Virus record (IMG/VR): IMGVR_UViG_3300027718_000185
Direction: 5' to 3' (one strand)
Source: a virus
Length of the DNA stretch: 64,000 nt
Below, one piece after another: positions 9,276 through 23,016 of this stretch. How positions within the stretch are numbered: the first letter of the stretch is position 1; each line of letters begins with the position of its first letter. The notes under the pieces are model-generated. The model did not search any database. It was not told where the DNA came from and was given only the letters and a program-made list of their open reading frames with translations. Made by a program: the position numbers and the translations under genes.

Positions 9276-9919
9276 AAAATAGATTCTATCTTGCATGTTT
9301 CCGCGACAACGTTGGTTCAAATGTTAGCTTCCAGCGTCATGAGTTTCGCGGCTACCACACTGATATTGATCAAGCACATGTTTGCACATTGGAAGAAGCC
9401 CAATACCATTTTGATCATGCCCGTGAATATGACTGTCCAATATCTGCAGACCATGTTGATAAGTTAGCTATATGGAAGGTTGACCATCAGTACATACCTA
9501 ATCAAACACAGATCATAGATGGAACTATTGGATATGCAGTTTTTGTAAAAAAGCAATTCGATGGAAATGACGTTTTCTGGCTGAATAAAAGGTCATTTGA
9601 AACCTCCACGAATTTTGAAATAGCTTCTTATTTTTCTTCAGAAGAAATTAATGAGTTAGGCCAACGATATATTGCCATCCCTTACCATTTGGCTGACAAA
9701 GCCAAAAGAAGAACCTTTGATTTCAGCAAATATAACCCTCGCATAATGACACAGGGTGCAGGTCTAAAGATGCCTGAACATCTAAAGAAAGCAAAACGTA
9801 GAGTAAAAGAACCTAAATCGCGGTTTAACTGTCCAAGCTGCGGAAAGATCGTTTGGCAATATAACCCTTACGATTTTGAGGTTTGCTCTCACTGTGGCCA
9901 GATAGGAGATCGGATATGA
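9272..9919 (+). CDS. Hypothetical protein with C-terminal Zn ribbon
   Basis: CPSCG...CSHCG. Confidence 0.6.
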   Translation: MKNRFYLACFRDNVGSNVSFQRHEFRGYHTDIDQAHVCTLEEAQYHFDHAREYDCPISADHVDKLAIWKVDHQYIPNQTQIIDGTIGYAVFVKKQFDGNDVFWLNKRSFETSTNFEIASYFSSEEINELGQRYIAIPYHLADKAKRRTFDFSKYNPRIMTQGAGLKMPEHLKKAKRRVKEPKSRFNCPSCGKIVWQYNPYDFEVCSHCGQIGDRI

Positions 9920-10878
9920 GTCTAGATGCCACTAATTGGGCTTGGAAAGTTCAGATCCCGACTAAGAAAGGCGGCTCATTACCTGCCTTAAAACTAGTTG
10001 TTTTGCTATCTATGGCTGATCGCGCAAGTGAGGATCATACCTGTTATCCAAGTGCTAAACGCTTAGCCGCGGACTGCAAAATTGACAGAAAAACTGTGAT
10101 GAAGATTCTTGCTGAGCTCTCCGATGATGGATTAATTACTGATACTGGAGAGCGCAAAGGTCAGACAAAACAGGTGGTCGTTTACCGCTTGAACGGTGTA
10201 ATGGGTCGCGAAGATACAGTCCCAACAATGGGACCATTAGAAGGTGAAAATTTAGATGGAAAGAGTACCAACGTTGGAACAGTACCAACAGTGGAACAGT
10301 TCCAACATTTCCATGAAAGAGTCCCAACAATTCCGGTAAACGGTCCCAACGTTGGGACACGGAATCTTTTAAAGAATCTATCAGAAGAATCTAAAAATAT
10401 AAAAACATGGTTGAGTTTGAAAAAACTTGGTGAAGAAATTCGTTTGGCAACTGATCAGGAAACTTACGAGCAGATCAAAAATGCAACTTGGTTTGATCGA
10501 GAGTTACGTGCATTTGAACTTTACAACGCCGAAAAGAATCTTTGTGATGAGCTCATGCATTACCACTTTGCAGATTGGTTAATCAACGCATGTGGCAAAT
10601 ACCAAGCACGTGAACAGGCTTTTTTCCGGAATTCAGGGTCGTCAGTTCGGTGCTCGCCGAGCGCACCACACCAGTTGAGCGATAAACAAATTCACACCTT
10701 CGCTCAAAAACTCTCACAACATCCTGAGTTCGCAAGCCAGTTTGCAGCTGCAGGGGAAAGCTACGACCAACTCGCAGCACGTATCGCTGTAAAACTTAGT
10801 GATCCAGCTCAGGCCAAACAATGGGAGCCATATCTCAAGCAAGTTGGGTTCAAAGGCACATTACAGGGGGCAGCATGA
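9916..10878 (+). CDS. Replication initiator (O-like, HTH_36 type)
   Basis: LKLVVLLSMADRA...CYPSAKRLAADC; internal iterons. Confidence 0.8.
   Translation: MSLDATNWAWKVQIPTKKGGSLPALKLVVLLSMADRASEDHTCYPSAKRLAADCKIDRKTVMKILAELSDDGLITDTGERKGQTKQVVVYRLNGVMGREDTVPTMGPLEGENLDGKSTNVGTVPTVEQFQHFHERVPTIPVNGPNVGTRNLLKNLSEESKNIKTWLSLKKLGEEIRLATDQETYEQIKNATWFDRELRAFELYNAEKNLCDELMHYHFADWLINACGKYQAREQAFFRNSGSSVRCSPSAPHQLSDKQIHTFAQKLSQHPEFASQFAAAGESYDQLAARIAVKLSDPAQAKQWEPYLKQVGFKGTLQGAA
10219..10358. repeat. Iterons / probable replication origin inside the initiator gene
   Basis: 16-bp quasi-palindromes GTCCCAACAATGGGAC, GTACCAACGTTGGAAC, GTACCAACAGTGGAAC, GTCCCAACGTTGGGAC plus partial copies, followed by an A-rich tract. 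Confidence 0.75.
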
Positions 10879-10944: not shown

Positions 10945-11361
10945 ATGTCTAGCATGAGTTTAGCTGAATACCGTGAATTATTTCCAGTGAAGACAAAGAA
11001 ACGCCGTTCAGCAAAGCAAGGTACTAGACAGCCAAGTGAAGGCGAGGCGGTACTGGCAACACACCTAAGAGCATGCAAGATTAGTTTTGAGCAGGAATAT
11101 AAATTCCATCCAAAACGCAAATGGAGAGCAGATTTTCTGATTACCAACACAAAGATTTTGGTTGAAGTGGAAGGCGGTATCTGGAGTGGAGGACGTCACA
11201 CAAGAGGCAAAGGTTACATCGGGGATATGGAGAAATATAACTCGGCAGCAATGATGGGTTTTACAGTTTTACGGTTCAGTACAGAACAAGTGAAGTCAGG
11301 TTTAGCGGTTCAGCAGATAGAGAAAATGGTTGGGGGAATGAATGACACTAATGATCGATAA
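10945..11361 (+). CDS. DUF559-like PD-(D/E)xK endonuclease
   Basis: EYKFHPKRKWRADF...VEVEGG...H...DMEKYN. Confidence 0.75.
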   Translation: MSSMSLAEYRELFPVKTKKRRSAKQGTRQPSEGEAVLATHLRACKISFEQEYKFHPKRKWRADFLITNTKILVEVEGGIWSGGRHTRGKGYIGDMEKYNSAAMMGFTVLRFSTEQVKSGLAVQQIEKMVGGMNDTNDR

Positions 11362-11848
11362 GAAGCATGTTATGCACTCAGTGGATTGGACACGATTCGA
11401 TCTAGAGGGCTGGTTATATCAGTTCGGTGCATGGTTAGATCAAAAGAGTTTTACGGGTATTCCTTCTGGCGCTTACAGTAATCCAATTGCCTCAGCGATG
11501 GTACAAGTTGAAAAGCAGCGCTGTTTAAAACGGTTAGGTAAGAAGAAACAACGGGAAATCATTGCCAATTACTTTGTGAGCGCAGCAGATCCATTTCGTA
11601 AAACCAAATCTAAAACCCAATGCCAGATTGATGACAATGAAGCCCGTGCAGTACAACGCTTGATTTTAGACTTAATGGGGCAGAGTGAAGTCATGGATGA
11701 ATGGATGGACGCGATTATTGATCGTTACTTTCGTGGACAGTCATGGCCTGAGATGGTACGAGAAGATCGCTCGCAATCAGATGCGCGTAGTGATGTGAAG
11801 TGTGGGTTGGCAGTGTTGCATTGCCGGTACGGATTTATTGGGTATTAG
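11342..11848 (+). CDS. Probable late antiterminator Q
   Basis: Last early-right gene; WLYQFGAW, IDDNEARAVQRLI, C-terminal HTH-like segment. Confidence 0.6.
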   Translation: MTLMIDKKHVMHSVDWTRFDLEGWLYQFGAWLDQKSFTGIPSGAYSNPIASAMVQVEKQRCLKRLGKKKQREIIANYFVSAADPFRKTKSKTQCQIDDNEARAVQRLILDLMGQSEVMDEWMDAIIDRYFRGQSWPEMVREDRSQSDARSDVKCGLAVLHCRYGFIGY

Positions 11849-12585: not shown

Positions 12586-12954
12586 TCAATTTTTCGCCTC
12601 TTTCCACCACTTAAGCATTTGTCCAAGATCGACATCCTGTAATGTTAGGCCATTTTCTTTCGCCTGATCTTCTACATGATTAATCCGCTTTTCAAACTTA
12701 GATATAGCAATCCCTAAACATTTTTCAGAATCTAGGTTTAAGCGGCAAGCCAAATTAATGAGTGAAAATAGGCAATCCCCAAACTCATCTTCTAAACGAG
12801 CTCTATCAACTTCAGGAGTATTGATTTCCTGAAACAGCTCATCAATTTCTTCTAGAACTTTTTCTTTTGCCTGTTCGTGACTATTCCATGTGAAGCCTTT
12901 TGAAATTAATAAGTCCTGAATTTCTTCAGCTCGCTTTAAGTTACTTTTTTGCAT
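12586..12954 (-). CDS. Stand-alone MazG C-terminal-like nucleotide pyrophosphohydrolase
   Basis: GFTW...KVLEEIDEL...LEDEFGDCLFSLINLAC...KFEKR follows the recalled second domain of E. coli MazG. Confidence 0.82.
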   Translation of the reverse strand: MQKSNLKRAEEIQDLLISKGFTWNSHEQAKEKVLEEIDELFQEINTPEVDRARLEDEFGDCLFSLINLACRLNLDSEKCLGIAISKFEKRINHVEDQAKENGLTLQDVDLGQMLKWWKEAKN

Positions 12955-14068
12955 ATCTCTTCTCATTAATTTCATGAAACTTATGGTAATGGTGAGCCAT
13001 ATAGTCTTTAAACTTTACAAGACTTTCCTTTTTAAATGGGGTCTTTATAACGAAATCTAATAATTGATGATTAATGATGATCTCACGAATTAAAGGATCA
13101 TCCACCATGATCAATCTTAAAGTGTCTGGCTCGAAAGTAATAAAGTAACGGTCAAATAACTTATCCATTAAGGCTGATAAGAGTAGACCATTTCGAGTAT
13201 CTAACCTTTCTTCATTTGTACAATCTTTCCAGGCTTTTATATGACTGGCCAGAAGCAAAGATTCATGTCTAATACCTGTTAAGACACATGTACTTTTGAA
13301 ATTTTTGAGTAAGTCTTTCCTAAATTGTCCTTGACCTAAACGAGACTGTACAAGTAATTTTTTTTCAGTTTCAGATAAAGTTTTGCTTTGGTGTATTTCA
13401 TCTAACTCTTCTCCAATCTCTTGATCAGATGCTTCAATAAGAGGTTGAGAAGGAGACGGGGGCTCAAAGTTATCAAATATCTTTTTGTCACTATTGCGAT
13501 GAAAAATACTTTTAGATAAATCAAAAATATCACCTAAATTCTTTAAAGAGTTATCTTTGATTGTTTCATCTGTCATTTTAAGAATGACATCTGTGATAAG
13601 CCCATTTCGGCCTTGTATACAAGAAGAATGACGGAAAGCCTCGTATATCTTCTCAACCAGTGGATCGTCAACGACTGTGAAATAGTCTTTCTTTAATTCA
13701 TATGAATTATTCTTATGTTTTAGTGTTGGGTAGGCTGCTATCAATTTGAAATAGAAGCGATGAGGATAAATATTTTTACCATCTTCATCATCCCATATTT
13801 GAGGGTTATCTTCATCTTGTGCTTCTTTTACCGTGAAGATATCGTTAGTAACTTTAGCAAGAACATATTGAGTAAGTTGTCCTGAAAAACGACTTCTCAC
13901 AGGACCCTGTAGAGCATGTGCGAAAATTAAATAATCACCACTTTTTATCTGCTCAGCACTATCATTTAAGTTTTTAAATCCCCAAACTCCATTGTTAAGA
14001 CCAGTGATGAAATTATTTAAAGTAGGTTTTGCTACATAGATACAATGAAGGTTAGTATGTTTCGTCAT
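12941..14068 (-). CDS. EVE/PUA-like domain + HNH endonuclease (candidate modification-dependent nuclease)
   Basis: N-terminal NGVWG...IKSGDYLIF...IWDDE...IYPHRF; C-terminal RLGQGQFR...CVLTG...ASHIKAW...NGLLL...DKLFD. Confidence 0.75.
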   Translation of the reverse strand: MTKHTNLHCIYVAKPTLNNFITGLNNGVWGFKNLNDSAEQIKSGDYLIFAHALQGPVRSRFSGQLTQYVLAKVTNDIFTVKEAQDEDNPQIWDDEDGKNIYPHRFYFKLIAAYPTLKHKNNSYELKKDYFTVVDDPLVEKIYEAFRHSSCIQGRNGLITDVILKMTDETIKDNSLKNLGDIFDLSKSIFHRNSDKKIFDNFEPPSPSQPLIEASDQEIGEELDEIHQSKTLSETEKKLLVQSRLGQGQFRKDLLKNFKSTCVLTGIRHESLLLASHIKAWKDCTNEERLDTRNGLLLSALMDKLFDRYFITFEPDTLRLIMVDDPLIREIIINHQLLDFVIKTPFKKESLVKFKDYMAHHYHKFHEINEKRYAKK

Positions 14069-14365
14069 AAGAATAAAATTAGGCTTTAGTAAAGTTTCAA
14101 AAGTTCTTTAATTGAGATAGTCCCTATAAAAGTAAGGGTTAGCCCAATAATAATCGATTATCACATTCGTCAGGTGGTTTATTAGAATTTTTCTAAAAAT
14201 TTACAACTAAGAAGGCGACTATAGGTGTTCTAGTTCTATTCGTTCTGCCGTATGTCTTTCATCAGCGTAGATGAGCATAATTTATGTTTTTAACTAAATA
14301 TTCCAAAATATATTTATAAGTTGTAGAGTAATGCTTATACATAACTGATAAGAAAGAATATTATT

Positions 14366-15307
14366 ATGACATCAAAACCAAAAATTGAAACGGCTTACTA
14401 CAGTGAGGACTGGAACTTTGAAAATGGAGATCCAGAAGAATTAATTAATAATTCAGCTCATATAACAGCAAGTGAATTTGATCCAGCAATGGCAGGTCAT
14501 GTTTTTTGTCCTGTATGTAAAACACCTCTGACTAGGGTTCCAAAATCGGGACTCATTCAGACTAATAATGTGAAAGCCTATTTCAGGCATCTTCCTTCTT
14601 ATAGAAGTGTGAAATGTAAATTAAGAACACCTGAGAGTGAAGGTAAAAGATATAAAAATGAAGAAGATGCCAAAGAAGCTATTGAAAAGGAAGAACTAAT
14701 AATCATCTCAAAGTTTACTTCGGAACCTGTAGAAACTAACTCTGATAGACAAGCTGAACCATATGATGCTACTGCAGTGGAAGATGAAGAAGGTGAGTTG
14801 ACTGAAGTCCCGATAGCCAGACACAGAGGAGAGAAATTAAATTTACCAACCCGAATTACGTCAGTTCAAGCTCTTTGTACTAACTTTGATAAGAAATTTT
14901 ATTCTTATATTCTTTTCCCAAGCAAGGAACAGGCATTAATGCTGAAAGATATACTGATAAGTATTAAAGATATAAGTCAAGAAGAAATGAAAGAGCTGGA
15001 TGCAGATGAGGAACAAGCACCACAGCTTTATTATGGCGAAATCCAGTATTCGAGGTTTTTAGGTGAATCTCATGATGATTACTTAAGAATGACCTACCTC
15101 AAGTGTCATGAATATGTTCACGATTTTTGTATAAAAATTAAATCGAAACTTCAAGACCGTAGAGGAATTCATGAAAAAGATGCTAGTAAAGGGCGTATTG
15201 TAATTTTTTGGGGAATTATCAAAGAAAGTGGAATGGGTTTTGCAGTTAAACCTTTATGGGGTGAATTTGGTTTGTTGCCTGAAAAATATAATAAATTCCT
15301 GAAGTAG
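14366..15307 (+). CDS. Hypothetical protein with CoiA-like N-terminal Zn finger
   Basis: FCPVC...YFRH...C pattern; remainder unrecognised. Confidence 0.55.
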   Translation: MTSKPKIETAYYSEDWNFENGDPEELINNSAHITASEFDPAMAGHVFCPVCKTPLTRVPKSGLIQTNNVKAYFRHLPSYRSVKCKLRTPESEGKRYKNEEDAKEAIEKEELIIISKFTSEPVETNSDRQAEPYDATAVEDEEGELTEVPIARHRGEKLNLPTRITSVQALCTNFDKKFYSYILFPSKEQALMLKDILISIKDISQEEMKELDADEEQAPQLYYGEIQYSRFLGESHDDYLRMTYLKCHEYVHDFCIKIKSKLQDRRGIHEKDASKGRIVIFWGIIKESGMGFAVKPLWGEFGLLPEKYNKFLK

Positions 15308-15320
15308 TGATGATGAGTAA

Positions 15321-16064
15321 ATGGGTAGAAATTCAATGACAGCATTTCAGAAACGTATAATAGTTCTTATTCTTTTATATTTTTTATTCTTTGCATTTGC
15401 TGTAGCGGGGTATTTCTATCTTGGACATATCAGTTCTTCTGAACTAGGAATAGATAGTAAACAAATTCCTCAATGGTCTAGAAGTGATTTAATCGCCTTG
15501 TTTGCTGCAGTTGGAGCATTAATGGCTCCAATTGCTGTCCTGTATGGTTTGCATGACTGGAAGAGGCAACATTTAACCGGTGAGAAATTAAAACTCTTAT
15601 ATGAGATCAATGAATTAAATGGTGAAATTAAAGGGATTATAGATGATGTTCGGGATAGGAATTTTTATATGATGATTAAAATTGGTGATTTTGATTATCA
15701 TGAAGATTTTAAAAAGTATTTCAGAGAATATTATAAAATAGTTAACAATATTGCTTTAAAAAATCACTCACTCGAGCTTATTGATTTAGATGGTGACCTA
15801 AGAGAAGTTAAAAAGATTCTGGATATTTTAGAAATTATCAGCAAGAATTTTTATGATAGCTATAATTATTTTAGGGCTGAAATAAATTCAGAAAATCAGA
15901 GGACTGCAGAATCATTTGATATACATAGAATGATGCTTAGTTCTGAACCTGTTAAGTTACTTGTGAAAGATCCTGAAAACATAATAAATGAAGTAGAGAA
16001 AAGATACACTTCACATTTTGAGAATATAGATAAAATTCTTAAAAAAGCCGTTACTAAAATCTAA
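15321..16064 (+). CDS. Hypothetical protein with two N-terminal TM helices and helical soluble domain
   Basis: Hydrophobic residues ~13-35 and ~55-76; starts 13 bp after previous stop. Confidence 0.55.
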   Translation: MGRNSMTAFQKRIIVLILLYFLFFAFAVAGYFYLGHISSSELGIDSKQIPQWSRSDLIALFAAVGALMAPIAVLYGLHDWKRQHLTGEKLKLLYEINELNGEIKGIIDDVRDRNFYMMIKIGDFDYHEDFKKYFREYYKIVNNIALKNHSLELIDLDGDLREVKKILDILEIISKNFYDSYNYFRAEINSENQRTAESFDIHRMMLSSEPVKLLVKDPENIINEVEKRYTSHFENIDKILKKAVTKI

Positions 16065-17314
16065 GCTATTGAACCTATTAGTTCTAATCTAGTCGATTCT
16101 TTATATGTTTTTATAACTCTCATTGGATCAAGATAAATACACTTGACGAAAGGGAAATCTGCATCCAGATAATTACCAGTTTGTTGATCTTGCATATGAA
16201 TCTTATCAAATGCGTTTTTTTGCCCTGGAAAGATCAGGGCATTTTCGAATTTATAATCTTTAAATTCCGGCATTATTGAAATTGCTTTTTCATAGAAGAA
16301 CTGTTTGACGAGATCTGCCCAGCCCGGAGCATTTTCTATACTAGTTGCTTCATAATATTTGGCATCCAGAATAGTCAGTTTCTTAGCTGTCTTGTCTTCA
16401 ATCACGATATCAGATCGCATACCTGATTTTTTCGCCGGTATTGCTGTTCCATCTGGCTTTATAAATACCGGTTTAGGTAACCGGCTATTAATATCAATGA
16501 CATTATCAAGGCATCTGGAAAGCATGTGCTCCCAAGCGACATGAAAACGTGTAACACCAATAATCTGGTTCTTCTGTTCATTACCTTTATAGGCTTCAAG
16601 ATACTCGATAAGCATTTTTAGAAGAAGGGTCTGGCGATCGGCAAAGTGATTCCTGATTTCATTCTTTAAAACCGAAATCTGGGCATCCGTAGAAAGGGAA
16701 GTTTCACCATACTGTTGTAATGAATATGGGACCTTGTTCTTGCCTGTAAAAATAAACCCGTAGTTTTTATATACCTGTTTAAGGATTCCGGCATGAATAC
16801 GTGTAATTTCCGAATTGCTAGAAGTTCTCTGTTTCCCGTACACATCCAGATAAACAGGACGACCAGAACTGTTTGGGAAAGAAACCGACCGGTTAACGGT
16901 TCTTTTCCAGTCTGTTTTTCCGGAATTCTTCCTTAGAAGAACTTCTTCGTTCTTGAAAATACCGTGTTGCTGGAAATCATTAATCAGATATTTGAACATC
17001 ACAAGTTTTTCAAAACCGGTTTCGTCAGCTCCATCTTCAGGACTGGTGACCTGTGTTTTTGAATCTTGGGCAAATTTAAAAAGTGCCTGCATCAGAAGAG
17101 CTGTATATTGTTCAGAATCAAGTTTGATCTTTTCTATATCTGACTGCCGAGGAAAGAAGAAATAATTCTCTCCTTGATATGAAACTAGACCACAGAAAGA
17201 GACTCTCAAGCCATTAATTGAGCTCAACAGGCCTTGACCCTGAATAAAGTCTGCAACAGGAGCGGGCAGTTCATTTACAGGGTTTCTATCTAGCAGGTAA
17301 TGATTATTTCTCAA
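16061..17314 (-). CDS. McrC-like / LlaJI-family restriction endonuclease subunit
   Basis: KTDWKRTV, FHVAWEHML, RSDIVI...ILDAKYY, DLVKQFFY. Confidence 0.8.
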   Translation of the reverse strand: MRNNHYLLDRNPVNELPAPVADFIQGQGLLSSINGLRVSFCGLVSYQGENYFFFPRQSDIEKIKLDSEQYTALLMQALFKFAQDSKTQVTSPEDGADETGFEKLVMFKYLINDFQQHGIFKNEEVLLRKNSGKTDWKRTVNRSVSFPNSSGRPVYLDVYGKQRTSSNSEITRIHAGILKQVYKNYGFIFTGKNKVPYSLQQYGETSLSTDAQISVLKNEIRNHFADRQTLLLKMLIEYLEAYKGNEQKNQIIGVTRFHVAWEHMLSRCLDNVIDINSRLPKPVFIKPDGTAIPAKKSGMRSDIVIEDKTAKKLTILDAKYYEATSIENAPGWADLVKQFFYEKAISIMPEFKDYKFENALIFPGQKNAFDKIHMQDQQTGNYLDADFPFVKCIYLDPMRVIKTYKESTRLELIGSIA

Positions 17315-17346
17315 ACTGGTTTTTCCTGATCATTCGCTGTAAATTT

Positions 17347-18948
17347 TTACTTACCAGTTTCTTCTTTTAGTCTTTTTTCAAAGTTTTCCGAGAAAATAAT
17401 TTCACCGGCATTAAATTTCTTTACTAAAGAGCCGAACGTTTTAATATCCTGATGGAAGAGGACAGAACGCTCACTATGGCGCAAAACATCGTCCCAGAGA
17501 TACATCAGGATTTTTCCTGTTAAAGCTTTCTTTGCATCTTCCGGATCTTTAATCTCGGTTTCATTTACAAACCATGGACCCATGTGTCGATCTTCAGGAA
17601 TAGATTCTGAAGAAAGAATAGAGTTTACAACCTGTGCAAAGTCAGACCAGCTTACAGTTTGAGGTCCGTCTTGCGTGTTAATTTCAAAATTACCTAACGG
17701 TGAAGTTATGAAATCAAGTGGTTTATATTCAAACTTCCAGCGACGCTTAAATGCCGTATCCAGAGGCATAACAGCCTGATCACTACTGTTCATTGTTGCA
17801 TAGAGACTAAGATTTTCCGGAATATAGAGTTTATTAGCTGGCAAAGGAGCAGATAGTTCTTTATTTAATAAGGTTAATAAATCTCTGTCATTAATATCGA
17901 TTTTATATTTGCTTTCTCCGTTTGATTTTCTATCAAGTAACTGAAATAGTTCCCCGAAAACTGCGGCTGCAGGGGCGCGGTTAATTTCCTCAATAATTAA
18001 ATAGTAATGATGGGAAGGATCATTTAAAGCTTTTACAAGTGCTTCAATGAATGGACCATGTTTGAAACTATATTCAATATTATCATTACTCATAGAGGGC
18101 TTTAAGCACCCTACAAAATCGCTGTACTGGGTTTCTGGATGAAAAACGGTACGGATGGAATTATTCTCATCTGTCTGTTGATCAATCTCGTGACTTTTCC
18201 CCGTCCCTGGAGCACCGTAGTAAATTATATTTTTACCAGCATTGGTATGTGGAGTTGTTGAGTTAGACAATATTGTCTTTGAATTTATAATTTGTTGCAC
18301 ATGGCGATCAAATTCTTTTCGAAGCTCTTCACTTGATTCAAATGCTTTTACTAATGGGATAAATTTATCAGAGCTTGCTGCAATAAATTGGCATGCTGCT
18401 AAAACTGAACTACTGTAGGCATCTGGACGATCTAGCTTTCTGCCTTCATTTTCAAAGTACGAATATTTTTTATCATAAATATACTTTTTGAATAGTGTAA
18501 AATTTGTTGCACTATTAACAGGATCAAAACTTGTTAAAATCGTTTGAACTTCTGTCTCAAATAGTAAATCCGATGAAGTTTTCGATGCTGGTTCTAAATC
18601 CTTTGGGTATTGGTTTAGTTCTATAGACTTATTCTTGCTCTTGGTTTGTCTAACAAGTAGCAAGTATTTTGCAAGTTCTTGACTGTATTTATAAAAAATG
18701 GATGCAGCCCATAACCACCGAGATGGAAAAATTGAAACTAGGCCATCTTTGTTTGTAAATTTAATAGAATATAATGATATATCTACTTCACCTGTGCCTT
18801 TACCAACCAGGATTTCGTTTAATTGCTGCTGTAGAAGAAGTTTTAATTCATTTTCGAGTTTAATATCAATATGGCTTGGAAGCTTACTGTATTCAGTCCT
18901 GCAATCATTAGCTAATTTATTAAGGTCTGCAAGTTCAAAACTTGACAT
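17347..18948 (-). CDS. McrB-like AAA+ GTPase subunit
   Basis: YYGAPGTGKS, IIEEINRA, ATMNSSD (NxxD), LDTAFKRRW. Confidence 0.88.
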   Translation of the reverse strand: MSSFELADLNKLANDCRTEYSKLPSHIDIKLENELKLLLQQQLNEILVGKGTGEVDISLYSIKFTNKDGLVSIFPSRWLWAASIFYKYSQELAKYLLLVRQTKSKNKSIELNQYPKDLEPASKTSSDLLFETEVQTILTSFDPVNSATNFTLFKKYIYDKKYSYFENEGRKLDRPDAYSSSVLAACQFIAASSDKFIPLVKAFESSEELRKEFDRHVQQIINSKTILSNSTTPHTNAGKNIIYYGAPGTGKSHEIDQQTDENNSIRTVFHPETQYSDFVGCLKPSMSNDNIEYSFKHGPFIEALVKALNDPSHHYYLIIEEINRAPAAAVFGELFQLLDRKSNGESKYKIDINDRDLLTLLNKELSAPLPANKLYIPENLSLYATMNSSDQAVMPLDTAFKRRWKFEYKPLDFITSPLGNFEINTQDGPQTVSWSDFAQVVNSILSSESIPEDRHMGPWFVNETEIKDPEDAKKALTGKILMYLWDDVLRHSERSVLFHQDIKTFGSLVKKFNAGEIIFSENFEKRLKEETGK

Positions 18949-18973
18949 AGTTGCCCCTATTGTATGGAACTTA

Positions 18974-19009
18974 CTTTTGACATATGTTATATTTAACCGG
19001 GTCAAAAAG
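18974..19009. promoter_or_regulatory. Divergent mcrB/methyltransferase control region with inverted repeat and one CCNGG site
   Basis: TTTTGAC (18975-18981) and GTCAAAA (19001-19007) arms; CCGGG at 18997-19001. Confidence 0.45.
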
Positions 19010-19022
19010 CGGATAAGTTATT

Positions 19023-20315
19023 GTGAAGTACGTTGATCTTGATTCATCTTATATCAGACAAAAAAGAAATAACATGGGGTTATCCCTCAAAGAGTTCGCT
19101 TTGCTGCTTGATATGAAAGAGAATGGTGAAAGAACAGTCAGAGGCTGGGAAAGTGGCGAGCATGTTCCTACTAAAGCAAAATGGGAACAGATTATTGCGT
19201 TGCCAGATAAAGCTCCATACAGGGAACGTCCTGACCAGAAGCATAAATTCACCTTTATTGACCTTTTCGCCGGTATTGGCGGAATCCGTTTACCTTTCCA
19301 GCAATTAAGAGGGAAGTGTGTATTCAGTTCCGAATGGGACAAGTTTGCACAAAAGACCTATGCTGCGAATTTTGGTGAACTACCTTCAGGTGATATCACA
19401 CAGATTAAAGCAGCTGATATTCCTGATCATGACATTCTTCTCGGTGGTTTCCCGTGTCAGTCCTTTTCACAGGCTGGTAAGCGTCAGGGCTTTCAGGATA
19501 CCCGCGGTACCATGTTCTTCGAGATCCAGCGAATTCTCTTCGAGAAGCGTCCAAAAGCATTTTTGCTCGAAAACGTGAAGCAGCTGCAGGGGCATGACAA
19601 AGGCCGTACGCTCAAAACCATTCTTGAGATCCTGCGTGGCGAATTTGATGAGGAGCTTGATCTTGAAGTTGAGCTTTCGGATGAAACCAAAAAGGCACTT
19701 TCAGAAAAACTGAATTACTGGGTTGATGTGAAGGTACTTCGTGCTGCAGATTTTGGTGTACCACAGAACCGTGAGCGTATTTTTCTTGTAGGTTTCGACA
19801 AGAATTACTTTGGTGAAGAGTGTAACTTTGATGAACTCTTCAGCTGGCCTGTTCCTCCTAAAAAGCAGACCCGACTTGGTGATATTCTTGAAGATGTCTC
19901 AAAACTCAAAAAGAGTGAAGATGTCTATACGATTTCGGATCGTCTCTGGCAAGGTCACCAGCGCCGTAAGGAAGAACATGGGATAAAGGGTAACGGATTT
20001 GGCTATACGCTTTATACTGGCGATAGTCCATATACCAATACCTTAAGTGCCCGGTATTACAAGGACGGCTCGGAAATCCTGATTTCGCAGGCTGAGCATG
20101 GCAAGAATCCGCGTAAACTGACTCCACGCGAATGTGCACGCTTACAGGGCTTCCCTGAGAACTACATAGTTGATGCTGTTTCACATGGCCAGATCTATAA
20201 ACAGTTCGGTAACTCTGTATGTGTAAAAGTTATTGAAGCTGTTGCTGGCCAAATGGTTAGCTGTCTTGATAAGGCTGAAAAGATTGTCGCAGAGAAGCAG
20301 CTGAAGTTATTCTAG
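19023..20315 (+). CDS. C5-cytosine DNA methyltransferase with N-terminal XRE HTH (M.SsoII-like, predicted CCNGG)
   Basis: FIDLFAGIGG, GFPCQ, ENV, QNRER, RKLTPRECARLQGFP, QFGNSV; TRD close to recalled M.SsoII. Confidence 0.9.
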   Translation: MKYVDLDSSYIRQKRNNMGLSLKEFALLLDMKENGERTVRGWESGEHVPTKAKWEQIIALPDKAPYRERPDQKHKFTFIDLFAGIGGIRLPFQQLRGKCVFSSEWDKFAQKTYAANFGELPSGDITQIKAADIPDHDILLGGFPCQSFSQAGKRQGFQDTRGTMFFEIQRILFEKRPKAFLLENVKQLQGHDKGRTLKTILEILRGEFDEELDLEVELSDETKKALSEKLNYWVDVKVLRAADFGVPQNRERIFLVGFDKNYFGEECNFDELFSWPVPPKKQTRLGDILEDVSKLKKSEDVYTISDRLWQGHQRRKEEHGIKGNGFGYTLYTGDSPYTNTLSARYYKDGSEILISQAEHGKNPRKLTPRECARLQGFPENYIVDAVSHGQIYKQFGNSVCVKVIEAVAGQMVSCLDKAEKIVAEKQLKLF

Positions 20316-20840
20316 TTAGTTGCTATCTGTAGAAGAAAGTCCGGTTTCACAGGAAGAAGGGAGAGTCATCTCCCTTTTTTTGTTAATCATCGGCTCGTCT
20401 ATCTCAAGCAATGGCTCTGAGCCTAATAACCATTTTGTAAGAATATCCATAAGTGCTACTGGGTCTTTTTTAGAACGACGTACTGCACATTCCCATATGG
20501 TACATATTCTCCAGCCGCTATTTAAAAGGAGATCTTTAGCTTTCAGGTCATTTTCCTGATTCTTGGAAATTTTTGCTTCCCAGAATTCTGTACGGCTAGC
20601 CGGTAACTTGAACAACCGGCAATTCGGGTGCCCATGCCAGAAACAGCCATGTATAAAAATGATAGCCCTGTATTTTGGTAATACGATATCAGGTTTACCT
20701 GGCAGGTCTTTGCGGTGGATACGGAAGCGGAAGCCCTGCGCATGAAGAAGGCTACGGATGAGTAATTCTGGTTTTGTATTCCGTCCTTTAATATTTGACA
20801 TCATACGGCTGCGAGTTGCGCTATCGACGATATCTACCAT
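20316..20840 (-). CDS. vsr: Very short patch repair endonuclease
   Basis: DIVDSATRSRMMSNIK..NTKPEL, LPGKPDIV, FIHGCFWHGH. Confidence 0.93.
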   Translation of the reverse strand: MVDIVDSATRSRMMSNIKGRNTKPELLIRSLLHAQGFRFRIHRKDLPGKPDIVLPKYRAIIFIHGCFWHGHPNCRLFKLPASRTEFWEAKISKNQENDLKAKDLLLNSGWRICTIWECAVRRSKKDPVALMDILTKWLLGSEPLLEIDEPMINKKREMTLPSSCETGLSSTDSN

Positions 20841-21665: not shown

Positions 21666-21783
21666 TTCTAATTAATATACAAACAAAGCCCTTCTAAATA
21701 TTCATTATTAGCAGGGCATTTTTTCTATGAGTTGATTGGCATATGCTGTATAAAGGCAAAATCTTTTGCAGAGATTTAATTCC

Positions 21784-23016
21784 ATGCCTATATTTACTTT
21801 AAATAATAATGAACTAAATGCAGTTGAGACCCCGTCTTTTAAAGAAGAAGCTATTCTGGAAAGATTGCATCTCCAGCAGGCGCTCAAGAAAAATATCGGG
21901 GTAATTGCTGAGGACTGCCTCATTATTGCTGAAGAGTATGCTGAATGGGATGGTTCAAAGAGAAGAATTGATTTACTGGCAATCGATAAAAATGCAAATC
22001 TTGTAATTATAGAGCTGAAGCGTACAGACACTGGTGACCATATGGAGCTTCAGGCTCTCCGGTATGCATCAATGGTTTCCACAATGACTCTGGATATAGC
22101 AATAGATATCTATCGTCGATATAAAATAAATAATGGCTATCCATCTTTTGATCACAACAATGCACGTGAAGAAATTTCAAATTTTGTAGATGTTGAAGTT
22201 CTGGATGAAAGTAATTTTGCGGATGATGTGAGAATCATTCTGGTCTCATCAAATTTCTCTAAAGAACTGACTACTTCAGTGATCTGGCTTAATGAGCGAG
22301 ATCTAGATATTACTTGTATAAGAATGCAGCCATATACTCACAATTCACAGATTCTGGTTGATATTCAACAAATTATACCTTTACCAGAAGCAAAGGATTA
22401 TCAGATTAAGGCACAGAAAAAATCAGAAGAAAGAAGGGAAGCCAAGCTTACGAATGCAAGGGATTACTCAAGCTTCATGTTCAATGGTAAAACTCTAAAT
22501 AAACGATATCTTGCCCTAGAAATTATTAAAAGCCGGTTTAATGAAATCGAAAATAAGAATATCGAAGATCTTAGAGTAGAGTTTAATGAATATCCGAATC
22601 TGGATAGATTGCTAGTTAAACTTAACCAGCTGGATGAGCAAAGATATGACCGTTATTTTATTGAGAAAGAACATCAGTTACAGATGAGTAATGGAGACAT
22701 ATATGTTGTTTCCAATCAATGGGGCAAAGGTAATATTTATCAGTTGATAGAAATTGCAGCCAACTTTAACTATGAAATTATTAACACTTCAAAAGATCAG
22801 TTGAAACGTTCAGTTGAATATGGTGATTATTTGATAGAGCAGCTCGAAGATACCACTATTCTAGTTTATAAAAATGGCGAGAAAGTATCAGCTTATGGAG
22901 TATTACTAGAGTTGGCCTCGTCTAAGGGAATTAGTCATTTAAATAGTAAAGGTGGTAAAAAGAACACTAGGCAACTTGGGAAAGACTTGATTGATCAATT
23001 AAACACCCACTCGTAG
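21784..23016 (+). CDS. NucS/EndoMS-like PD-(D/E)xK nuclease with two C-terminal accessory domains
   Basis: RRIDLLAIDKNANLVIIELKR...QALRY; C-terminal VSNQWG and KNTRQLG motifs. Confidence 0.68.
   Translation: MPIFTLNNNELNAVETPSFKEEAILERLHLQQALKKNIGVIAEDCLIIAEEYAEWDGSKRRIDLLAIDKNANLVIIELKRTDTGDHMELQALRYASMVSTMTLDIAIDIYRRYKINNGYPSFDHNNAREEISNFVDVEVLDESNFADDVRIILVSSNFSKELTTSVIWLNERDLDITCIRMQPYTHNSQILVDIQQIIPLPEAKDYQIKAQKKSEERREAKLTNARDYSSFMFNGKTLNKRYLALEIIKSRFNEIENKNIEDLRVEFNEYPNLDRLLVKLNQLDEQRYDRYFIEKEHQLQMSNGDIYVVSNQWGKGNIYQLIEIAANFNYEIINTSKDQLKRSVEYGDYLIEQLEDTTILVYKNGEKVSAYGVLLELASSKGISHLNSKGGKKNTRQLGKDLIDQLNTHS

Follow-up and report, generated by a model that had tools for sequence, protein, structure and literature searches.

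We found that an Acinetobacter prophage carries two overlapping genes, encoding a predicted modified-DNA-reading HNH nuclease and a single-domain MazG protein, and that in relatives of this nuclease the MazG gene almost always follows. The pair is probably an unnamed variant of modification-dependent (type IV-like) restriction, a function inferred here from sequence and structure prediction alone. The genes were located in a window of 64,000 nucleotides of viral DNA (IMG/VR record IMGVR_UViG_3300027718_000185). An earlier note based on the sequence alone had described them as an EVE-HNH nuclease coupled to a stand-alone MazG C-terminal domain with a 14-nt overlap, and our analysis confirmed this observation, with the N-terminal domain predicted to have an EVE/YTH-like fold. 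The pairing is not named in PADLOC 2.0.0, and full-text searches of the literature for combinations of EVE, HNH and MazG revealed no paper describing it; Burroughs et al. 2015 (NAR) is cited as predicting such domains in defence.

Predicted domains of the nuclease and MazG proteins

Gene 1 (12941-14068, minus strand, stop codon at 12941-12943) encodes a 375-residue protein, for which 19 full-length relatives with 34-97% identity were aligned. The AlphaFold2 model has pLDDT values of about 80-95 over residues 1-190 (13499-14068, minus). Foldseek and VIA-align comparisons placed this N-terminal domain with EVE and YTH folds of the PUA superfamily, with matches over residues 2-178 to PH1033 (Z 9.2), MJECL36 (Z 8.8), the N-domain of Thermococcus gammatolerans McrB (Z 8.4), and YTH domains (Z 7-7.8), and with a Z of 5.5 for 2eve and a Foldseek E of 5.5e-9 for VcaM4I. 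However, the Pfam EVE model (PF01878) is not matched, and there is only a weak NCBIfam hit to the PH1033-type family PRK00809 (E 8e-4), so the predicted fold places the domain in the superfamily without assigning it to an exact family. Distant sequence relatives of the domain are found at the N-termini of McrB-like AAA_5 proteins and on a T5orf172 nuclease-type protein, which are the usual places for modified-DNA readers. In VcaM4I, a flipped modified base is taken up by an aromatic/hydrophobic pocket (P24, W82 and Y130); the domain here contains the invariant aromatic residues W29, W92, Y101 and F105, for which a pocket role would be conjecture.

The reader domain is followed by a linker of residues 191-256 (13301-13498, minus), which consists of a disordered stretch (pLDDT below 50 for residues 193-216) and helices at 216-226 and 233-256. 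Residues 220 onward align with VcaM4I from residue 167, upstream of its HNH core. The HNH catalytic core comprises residues 257-320 (13109-13300, minus). Pfam HNH_2 matches residues 261-313 with 43 bits against a cut-off of 21, and a profile of 20 relatives matches the HNH region of VcaM4I (PDB 6yex) at E 2.4e-28. H276, N293, D302 and D306 correspond to H224, N241, D250 and D254, the residues proven catalytic in VcaM4I (catalytic His, structural Asn and two Asp metal ligands), and all four are invariant in 20 sequences. The HNH part of the structural model is, however, of low confidence.

Gene 2 (12586-12954, minus) encodes a MazG domain that scores 37 bits against the Pfam cut-off of 22 (PF03819). 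It aligns only to the C-terminal half of canonical MazG, namely positions 132-250 of 251 in NCBIfam PRK09562 (E 1e-28) and residues 144-259 of Escherichia coli MazG (PDB 3cra; E 1.3e-20). Its EEIDE and EDEFGD motifs align with those of E. coli MazG, and E42, E43, E46, E64, D67, K93, E95 and R97 (numbering of the 129-residue ORF) are invariant over 11 diverse sequences. The longest ORF starts at 12975, which would give a 35-nt overlap with gene 1, and a further upstream ATG lies at 12966. The start conserved among relatives and used in public annotations is the third ATG at 12954, which gives a protein of 122 residues and exactly the 14-nt overlap (12941-12954), suggesting translational coupling.

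Linkage and genomic context

The MazG gene overlaps the 3' end of gene 1 in every lineage with usable context except one. In the loci examined (designated L), this was observed in L001 (58% identity for gene 1), L002 (33%), L003 (31%), L116-119 (69-70%), L121-123 (32%), L124 (68%), L125-127 (56%), L128-129 (73-74%), L130-132 (70%) and L135 (38%). An overlap of 8-59 nt is present in all 12 paired loci measured, and the divergence of the two genes is correlated (Spearman 0.85). A search from the MazG side gave the same result, as four MazG clusters chosen without regard to their neighbours all sit behind an HNH_2 gene encoding 373-375 residues. Among 401 Moraxellaceae genomes, this MazG subfamily (at least 196 bits, against at most 104 bits for housekeeping MazG) occurs in three, always beside gene 1 or its remnant. 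The exceptions are one relative of the nuclease (P0019, 44% identity, in L120) without a MazG gene downstream, which means that the nuclease can exist alone, and one genome with an intact MazG beside a 5'-truncated nuclease remnant.

We further tested whether a pyrophosphatase partner is general for HNH_2 nucleases. Of 76 HNH_2 loci with other N-domains, none has a MazG gene and only one has a NUDIX gene within 3.5 kb, as searched with a relaxed NUDIX-box pattern and phmmer. This is no enrichment, so such a partner is not a general need of this nuclease class.

In the window, the cassette lies in the accessory-gene hotspot downstream of a prophage Q-like antiterminator gene (11342-11848, plus; phrog_79, E 1.3e-30), and the flanking DNA matches Acinetobacter baumannii temperate phages. 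The AT-rich divergent intergenic region at 14069-14365 is the presumed promoter region, although a consensus scan found no minus-strand sigma-70 match there. The same island (16061-20840) contains LlaJI-like restriction genes (16061-17314 and 17347-19005, minus; Pfam RE_LlaJI and AAA_5), a C-5 cytosine methyltransferase gene (19023-20315, plus; Pfam DNA_methylase) and a Vsr gene (20316-20840, minus; Pfam Vsr). Elsewhere, the pair is found in other prophage accessory hotspots and in integrase islands next to Ppl or to QueC plus a deoxyribosyltransferase. In some prophages (L116 and L118), the operon continues behind MazG with a NudG/MutT-like NUDIX gene (PADLOC candidate PDC-S07; best PDB match a putative CTP pyrophosphohydrolase) and an SRA-HNH type IV nuclease gene, a pair that also stands alone in five other genomes.

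The cassette is confined to Acinetobacter as far as these searches reach. DNA searches of the pair against 50,697 phage and 72,556 plasmid records found nothing, and a protein search of phages gave only partial matches to the HNH or the reader domain. The nearest short MazG hits outside Acinetobacter (P0149 and P0138) turned out to be chromosomal MazG pieces beside pcnB, folK and panB rather than defence cassettes.

Interpretation of the cassette

Considering these results, the most likely explanation, to which we assign a probability of roughly 0.55, is a mobile, prophage-borne, modification-dependent restriction cassette of two translationally coupled genes. In this view, gene 1 is an NTP-independent nuclease of the VcaM4I build, in which the reader would flip out and recognise a modified base in incoming DNA, the linker would hold the enzyme in check and the HNH domain would cut. 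The MazG domain, an all-alpha NTP pyrophosphohydrolase by fold, would most likely convert the matching non-canonical dNTP into dNMP and pyrophosphate. This would either starve a modified-base phage of its special building block or prevent modified nucleotides salvaged from degraded DNA from entering the host chromosome and making it a target of its own nuclease. Our analysis establishes the domain architecture, the intact catalytic residues, the tight and conserved linkage and the mobile, defence-type context, whereas protection against phages, dependence of cleavage on modification, the identity of the modified base, the MazG activity and substrate (which nothing in the sequence reveals) and the choice between the two protective roles are inferred. 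Because the same island encodes an m5C methyltransferase and a related prophage encodes a Dam-like methylase, the reader probably does not attack ordinary 5mC or m6A in those contexts, and a hypermodified base such as 5hmC or a derivative is our best guess.

The earlier note had proposed a candidate undescribed two-gene defence system that cuts modified DNA and destroys the modified dNTP or depletes nucleotides or alarmone, with host protection by MazG as an alternative. Our results support this interpretation, with its mechanism remaining an inference. The computational grounds that the note had set for rejecting it were not borne out: the two genes co-occur almost without exception in lineages down to 31% identity and across different mobile elements, and the N-terminus is predicted to fold as a PUA-superfamily EVE/YTH-like domain. 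In PADLOC 2.0.0, gene 1 hits only generic HNH/REase_II models and the MazG gene hits none.

Other explanations appear unlikely. MazG might be a general nucleotide or alarmone hydrolase that lowers canonical (d)NTP pools or (p)ppGpp during infection, as a depletion or abortive arm independent of base modification, with the nuclease acting separately. The protein is closest to the catalytic domain of canonical MazG, which has broad NTP activity, defence by dNTP depletion is an established strategy, and DefensePredictor lists MazG domains among predicted but unvalidated defence domains. However, a constitutively coupled, unregulated general NTPase would be costly, each genome examined already has a housekeeping two-domain MazG, and the NUDIX partner of the SRA-HNH nuclease is of the NudG/MutT house-cleaning type rather than a bulk depleter. 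The strict tie to one reader lineage, and not to HNH_2 nucleases in general, also fits a link through specificity better. It is similarly unlikely that MazG is mainly a regulatory or immunity partner, which would bind the nuclease and hold it inactive, or sense a phage-made nucleotide and release or activate the HNH enzyme, with hydrolysis being secondary. The overlap conserved in all paired loci suggests stoichiometric co-production, and VcaM4I becomes a toxic non-specific nuclease when its reader domain and linker are removed, so such nucleases need restraint. On the other hand, the invariant catalytic acidic residues argue for enzymatic activity, a nuclease relative exists without MazG, and the unrelated NUDIX fold in the equivalent place beside another reader-HNH nuclease points to shared chemistry rather than a shared binding surface.

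Least likely is that the cassette serves the prophage rather than host defence, or that the two genes are merely inherited together without working together. The location inside prophages, the commonness of MazG-like genes in phages (as in our PHROG hits) and the narrow Acinetobacter family agree with this. However, the pair also sits in non-phage integrase islands beside known defence genes such as Ppl, is absent from the phage records searched, is transcribed opposite to the prophage late genes, and remains linked with its overlap down to 31% identity. A mazEF-type toxin-antitoxin reading was rejected because no mazEF is nearby; the neighbours of MazG are the HNH gene and a gene for a 143-residue predicted membrane protein without family hits. 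A homing or packaging HNH enzyme was rejected because of the reader domain, the VcaM4I-type HNH and the variable position relative to terminase genes.

A more far-reaching reading, which we consider only tentative, is that nucleotide-pool policing is an integral second arm of some type IV restriction systems. The MazG domain would then be a dedicated pyrophosphatase for the very modified dNTP (for example 5hm-dCTP or a relative) whose DNA form the reader recognises, so that the cassette would both cut modified phage DNA and block its synthesis or the re-use of its nucleotides. The independent recruitment of MazG and NUDIX folds to different reader-HNH nucleases would reflect one general principle. 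Type IV restriction enzymes are treated as single-protein or nuclease-motor systems, and a conserved nucleotide-hydrolase partner suggests an unstudied problem or opportunity: modified nucleotides released or made during infection may have to be destroyed to protect the host chromosome from its own nuclease, or their destruction may itself be antiviral. The cassette of about 1.5 kb is easy to clone, and its presence in A. baumannii prophages matters for the choice of therapeutic phages. If MazG proves specific for a modified dNTP, it would also be a useful reagent and a clue to which phage DNA modifications circulate in Acinetobacter.

Comparison with known systems

The closest known enzyme to gene 1 is VcaM4I, an EVE-HNH modification-dependent restriction endonuclease (Pastor et al. 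2021, PMC7897488), which is the top Foldseek match for the whole model. Both have a PUA-superfamily reader (predicted here), a linker and an HNH domain in the same order, and the HNH regions are clearly homologous. However, the reader domains share no detectable sequence similarity, the fold here being closer to archaeal PH1033/MJECL36 and to the YTH-like N-domain of T. gammatolerans McrB, and the protein is 66 residues longer. VcaM4I is described as a single-protein enzyme, and other reader-HNH enzymes also work without any partner, whereas the present family carries an overlapping MazG gene.

Linkage of a type IV nuclease to an NTP pyrophosphohydrolase gene is not in itself new. SauUSI, a modified-cytosine restriction enzyme, has a conserved neighbouring MutT/NUDIX gene of unknown role, with at least 60 such linkages reported (Xu et al. 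2011, PMC3141236), which the far-reaching reading above would also explain. However, SauUSI is an ATP-dependent PLD-nuclease/helicase enzyme, its partner is NUDIX rather than MazG, the authors suggested pyrophosphate breakdown, and neither gene is homologous to those described here. The NUDIX and SRA-HNH module of Acinetobacter prophages shows the same logic in the same hotspots, a house-cleaning-type pyrophosphatase tightly linked to a reader-HNH nuclease, and in L116 and L118 it is fused with the present cassette into one five-gene operon. It differs in its pyrophosphatase fold, in its reader (SRA) and in its gene order, with the pyrophosphatase gene first. Thus, two unrelated pyrophosphatase folds accompany two different reader-HNH nucleases.

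Canonical MazG (E. coli, PDB 3cra/3crc) and single-domain relatives such as DCTPP1 share the all-alpha NTP pyrophosphohydrolase fold and the acidic motifs with gene 2. In contrast to canonical MazG, only the C-terminal domain of the tandem pair is present, the NCBIfam score is far below the equivalog cut-off (100.7 bits against 208; PRK09562/TIGR00444), and the gene is accessory and mobile. DCTPP1 acts in 5-methyl-dCTP metabolism and prefers 5-modified dCTPs, which gives a precedent for the role proposed here for MazG.

Architecture of the two genes

On the minus strand, an ORF at 12941-14068 (gene 1, 375 aa) is followed by an ORF at 12586-12975 (gene 2, 129 aa). The product of gene 1 carries a Pfam HNH_2 domain at residues 261-313 (43 bits against a cut-off of 21) and matches generic HNH/REase models of PADLOC. 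A profile built from an alignment of 20 full-length relatives strongly matched one solved protein, the EVE-HNH restriction enzyme VcaM4I (PDB ID 6yex), with an E value of 2.4e-28, residues 220-317 of gene 1 aligning with residues 167-264 of VcaM4I. Mutagenesis in the VcaM4I study showed that H224, D250 and D254 are essential and that N241 is structural. These residues align with H276, D302, D306 and N293 of gene 1, respectively, and all four are invariant in our alignment.

No Pfam family was found in residues 1-200 of gene 1, and NCBIfam gave only a weak hit (E 8e-4) to PRK00809, the family of the archaeal EVE protein PH1033. We therefore examined this region by structure prediction. An AlphaFold2 model built on the alignment of relatives had a pLDDT of about 80-95 over residues 1-190, but was poor for part of the linker and, unexpectedly, for part of the HNH core. 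A Foldseek search of the PDB using the model returned VcaM4I first (E 5.5e-9), followed only by PUA-superfamily readers, namely MJECL36, PH1033, YTH domains, 2eve and the N-terminal domain of Thermococcus gammatolerans McrB. VIA-align gave Z scores of 9.2 for PH1033, 8.8 for MJECL36, 8.4 for the T. gammatolerans McrB N-domain, which was solved with m5C DNA, and 7-7.8 for YTH domains, over model residues 2-178. A phmmer scan of 1.84 billion cluster representatives with residues 1-195 revealed three close clusters and about twenty distant ones. Of ten distant hits checked, four carry a McrB-like AAA_5 domain, in three of them with the match at or near the N-terminus, and one is fused to a T5orf172 nuclease-type domain. 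One of the McrB-like proteins also carries a Pfam EVE domain elsewhere. Therefore, the N-terminal domain is predicted to be a modified-nucleic-acid reader of the EVE/YTH clade, although strict membership of Pfam EVE is not shown.

Gene 2 reaches the Pfam MazG threshold (37 bits against 22). However, it aligns only with the second half of canonical MazG, covering positions 132-250 of 251 in NCBIfam PRK09562 (E 1e-28, far below the equivalog cut-off) and residues 144-259 of E. coli MazG (E 1.3e-20). The motifs EEIDE and EDEFGD line up with the E. coli motifs, and E42, E43, E46, E64, D67, K93, E95 and R97 are invariant in eleven diverse relatives. Public annotations and the alignment place the start of gene 2 at the third ATG, at 12954, which gives a protein of 122 aa and the 14-nt overlap with gene 1 that the earlier note had claimed. 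The observation made in that note, of a predicted reader-HNH nuclease overlapping a lone MazG C-terminal domain, is confirmed.

Genomic context and linkage of the pair

The organism is an Acinetobacter, and the nearest proteins are named A. baumannii. The surroundings are a lambdoid-type prophage, with a replication initiator at 9883-10878 and a Q-like antiterminator at 11342-11848, and the flanking DNA matches A. baumannii temperate phages. The cassette is transcribed against the main direction of the prophage and lies in a block of accessory genes. This block also holds a LlaJI-like restriction pair on the minus strand (16061-19005; RE_LlaJI of 417 aa and a McrB-like AAA_5 protein of 552 aa), an HTH-fused C-5 cytosine methyltransferase on the plus strand (19023-20315, 430 aa) and a Vsr mismatch endonuclease (20316-20840, 174 aa). 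Lysogen DNA should therefore carry 5mC, which constrains what the reader-HNH protein can target. Between the cassette and the LlaJI-like genes, at 14366-16064, lie two plus-strand genes with almost no family matches, one encoding a 313-aa protein with paired-cysteine motifs, and the other a 247-aa protein, apparently with a membrane segment, that matches only phrog_7125 (unknown function). Further accessory genes of the same hotspot encode a 416-aa protein with a weak NucS_C-like nuclease domain (21766-23016, E 1e-5) and, preceding it, a 197-aa protein without hits.

To determine whether the two genes form a unit, we examined loci found from either gene. Starting from gene 1, every locus with a full-length relative and enough flanking DNA, apart from one relative described below, has the MazG gene overlapping its end. 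These loci are L001 (58% identity for gene 1 and 76% for MazG), L002 (33% and 51%), L003 (31% and 50%), L116-119 (69-70% and 79%) and L121-123 (32% and 50%). Starting from MazG, four clusters chosen only because they had long contigs (P0082, P0092, P0088 and P0086) each sit directly behind a 373-375 aa HNH_2 gene that is 56-74% identical to gene 1. A third lineage, represented by locus L135, is also paired, at 38% and 59% identity. The longest contigs of several further cluster pairs are identical in size, for example 17800, 7123, 6194, 5638 and 3963 bases, which indicates the same contigs. The overlap is 8-59 nt in all twelve paired loci, and the divergence of the two genes is correlated (Spearman 0.85), although among kin this shows co-inheritance and not more. 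In 401 species-representative Moraxellaceae genomes, full-length gene 1 was found in two genomes and the MazG subfamily in three, separated by a wide score gap from housekeeping MazG (at least 196 bits against at most 104 bits). The third of these genomes (G399) has a decayed copy (L168, 1492-2101), in which MazG is intact (120 aa) but only the last 88 codons of the nuclease, of the type of cluster P0020, remain upstream. The only nuclease without MazG is the relative P0019 (44% identity; L120, 656-1780), which is followed by a convergent 164-aa gene and a PIN-domain gene on a 3.3-kb metagenomic contig.

The contexts of the pair differ among loci. It was found in accessory hotspots of at least four distinct prophages, in small integrase islands beside Ppl, and in integrase islands beside QueC and a PfkB/deoxyribosyltransferase fusion. 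The Ppl homologue in the integrase island of L121 (10329-13040) is full length (903 aa, PADLOC E 5e-139), and a 518-aa NOV_C-domain protein is another defence-type neighbour in a different prophage (L130, 6448-8004). In the integrase/AlpA island of L125 (6731-8843; also in L126 and L127), the cassette faces a convergent operon of QueC, a 399-aa PfkB-kinase/nucleoside 2-deoxyribosyltransferase fusion and a 107-aa protein, which is another nucleotide- or deazapurine-themed candidate module. Both families appear confined to Acinetobacter in the databases searched.

A parallel NUDIX module and the inferred mechanism

In L116-119 the operon continues with a 133-aa NUDIX gene, a 272-aa SRA-HNH gene and a 345-348-aa gene of no known family, with gaps of 2-24 nt (L116, 9497-11776; L118, 9483-11767). 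The NUDIX protein, which is NudG/MutT-like, matches the PADLOC candidate PDC-S07 over its full length (E 3.5e-45), as well as MutT and the pyrimidine (d)NTP diphosphatase family, and its best solved match is a putative CTP pyrophosphohydrolase (PDB ID 3gwy, E 4e-34). The SRA-HNH protein matches PADLOC type IV models. The NUDIX gene directly precedes the SRA-HNH gene, often with the 345-348-aa protein. This module stands alone, without gene 1 or MazG, in five other Moraxellaceae genomes (L136-L140), and is fused behind the MazG gene in two prophage lineages. So two unrelated pyrophosphatase folds accompany two different reader-HNH nucleases in the same hotspots, and the two pairs can be joined. 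However, the partner is not a general property of HNH_2 nucleases. Of 76 loci with the same HNH type but other N-domains, none has a MazG and one has a NUDIX within 3.5 kb. In this single case, from a Bacteroidetes MAG (L013, 5068-5442), the NUDIX gene is 48% identical to the Acinetobacter one and is divergently placed about 560 nt from an HNH_2 nuclease with a different N-domain.

Gene 1 is best read as an NTP-independent, modification-dependent nuclease like VcaM4I, consisting of a reader, a restraining linker and an HNH domain. Because MazG keeps every catalytic residue under conservation, it is probably an active NTP pyrophosphohydrolase. The tie is to a particular reader lineage rather than to the nuclease fold, and a house-cleaning-type NUDIX fills the same place next to an SRA reader. 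The simplest reading is that the partner hydrolyses the triphosphate of the base that the reader recognizes. This could deny a modified-base phage its precursor, or it could prevent salvaged modified nucleotides from being built into host DNA, where the nuclease would then cut. While the domain architecture, the conserved catalytic residues and the linkage come directly from the analysis, this mechanism is inferred throughout, including the dependence of cleavage on modification and the activity and substrate of MazG. In this view, because the island also makes 5mC (methyltransferase plus Vsr) and the L116 prophage has a Dam-type methylase, the reader must tolerate those marks, which points to a hypermodified base or a restricted sequence context. 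The rival explanations are general depletion of NTPs or of an alarmone, a regulatory or immunity role for MazG, and mere co-inheritance of the two genes. As far as computation can go, the interpretation of the earlier note, a two-gene system against modified-base phages, is supported.

Comparison with known systems

The cassette is probably a form of type IV restriction with a putative dedicated MazG partner, and is narrow in taxonomic range. PADLOC 2.0.0 has no model for this MazG, and full-text literature searches found no paper describing the pair. DefensePredictor (2026) lists MazG among predicted, unvalidated defence domains. The closest described linkage is that of SauUSI with a MutT/NUDIX gene, which was reported in 2011 for at least 60 homologues with its function left open, and is mentioned again only in a figure legend of Bell et al. 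2020. The closest characterized enzyme is VcaM4I, which has no described partner. Its HNH domain is homologous to that of gene 1 and its architecture is the same, but its reader belongs to a different family.
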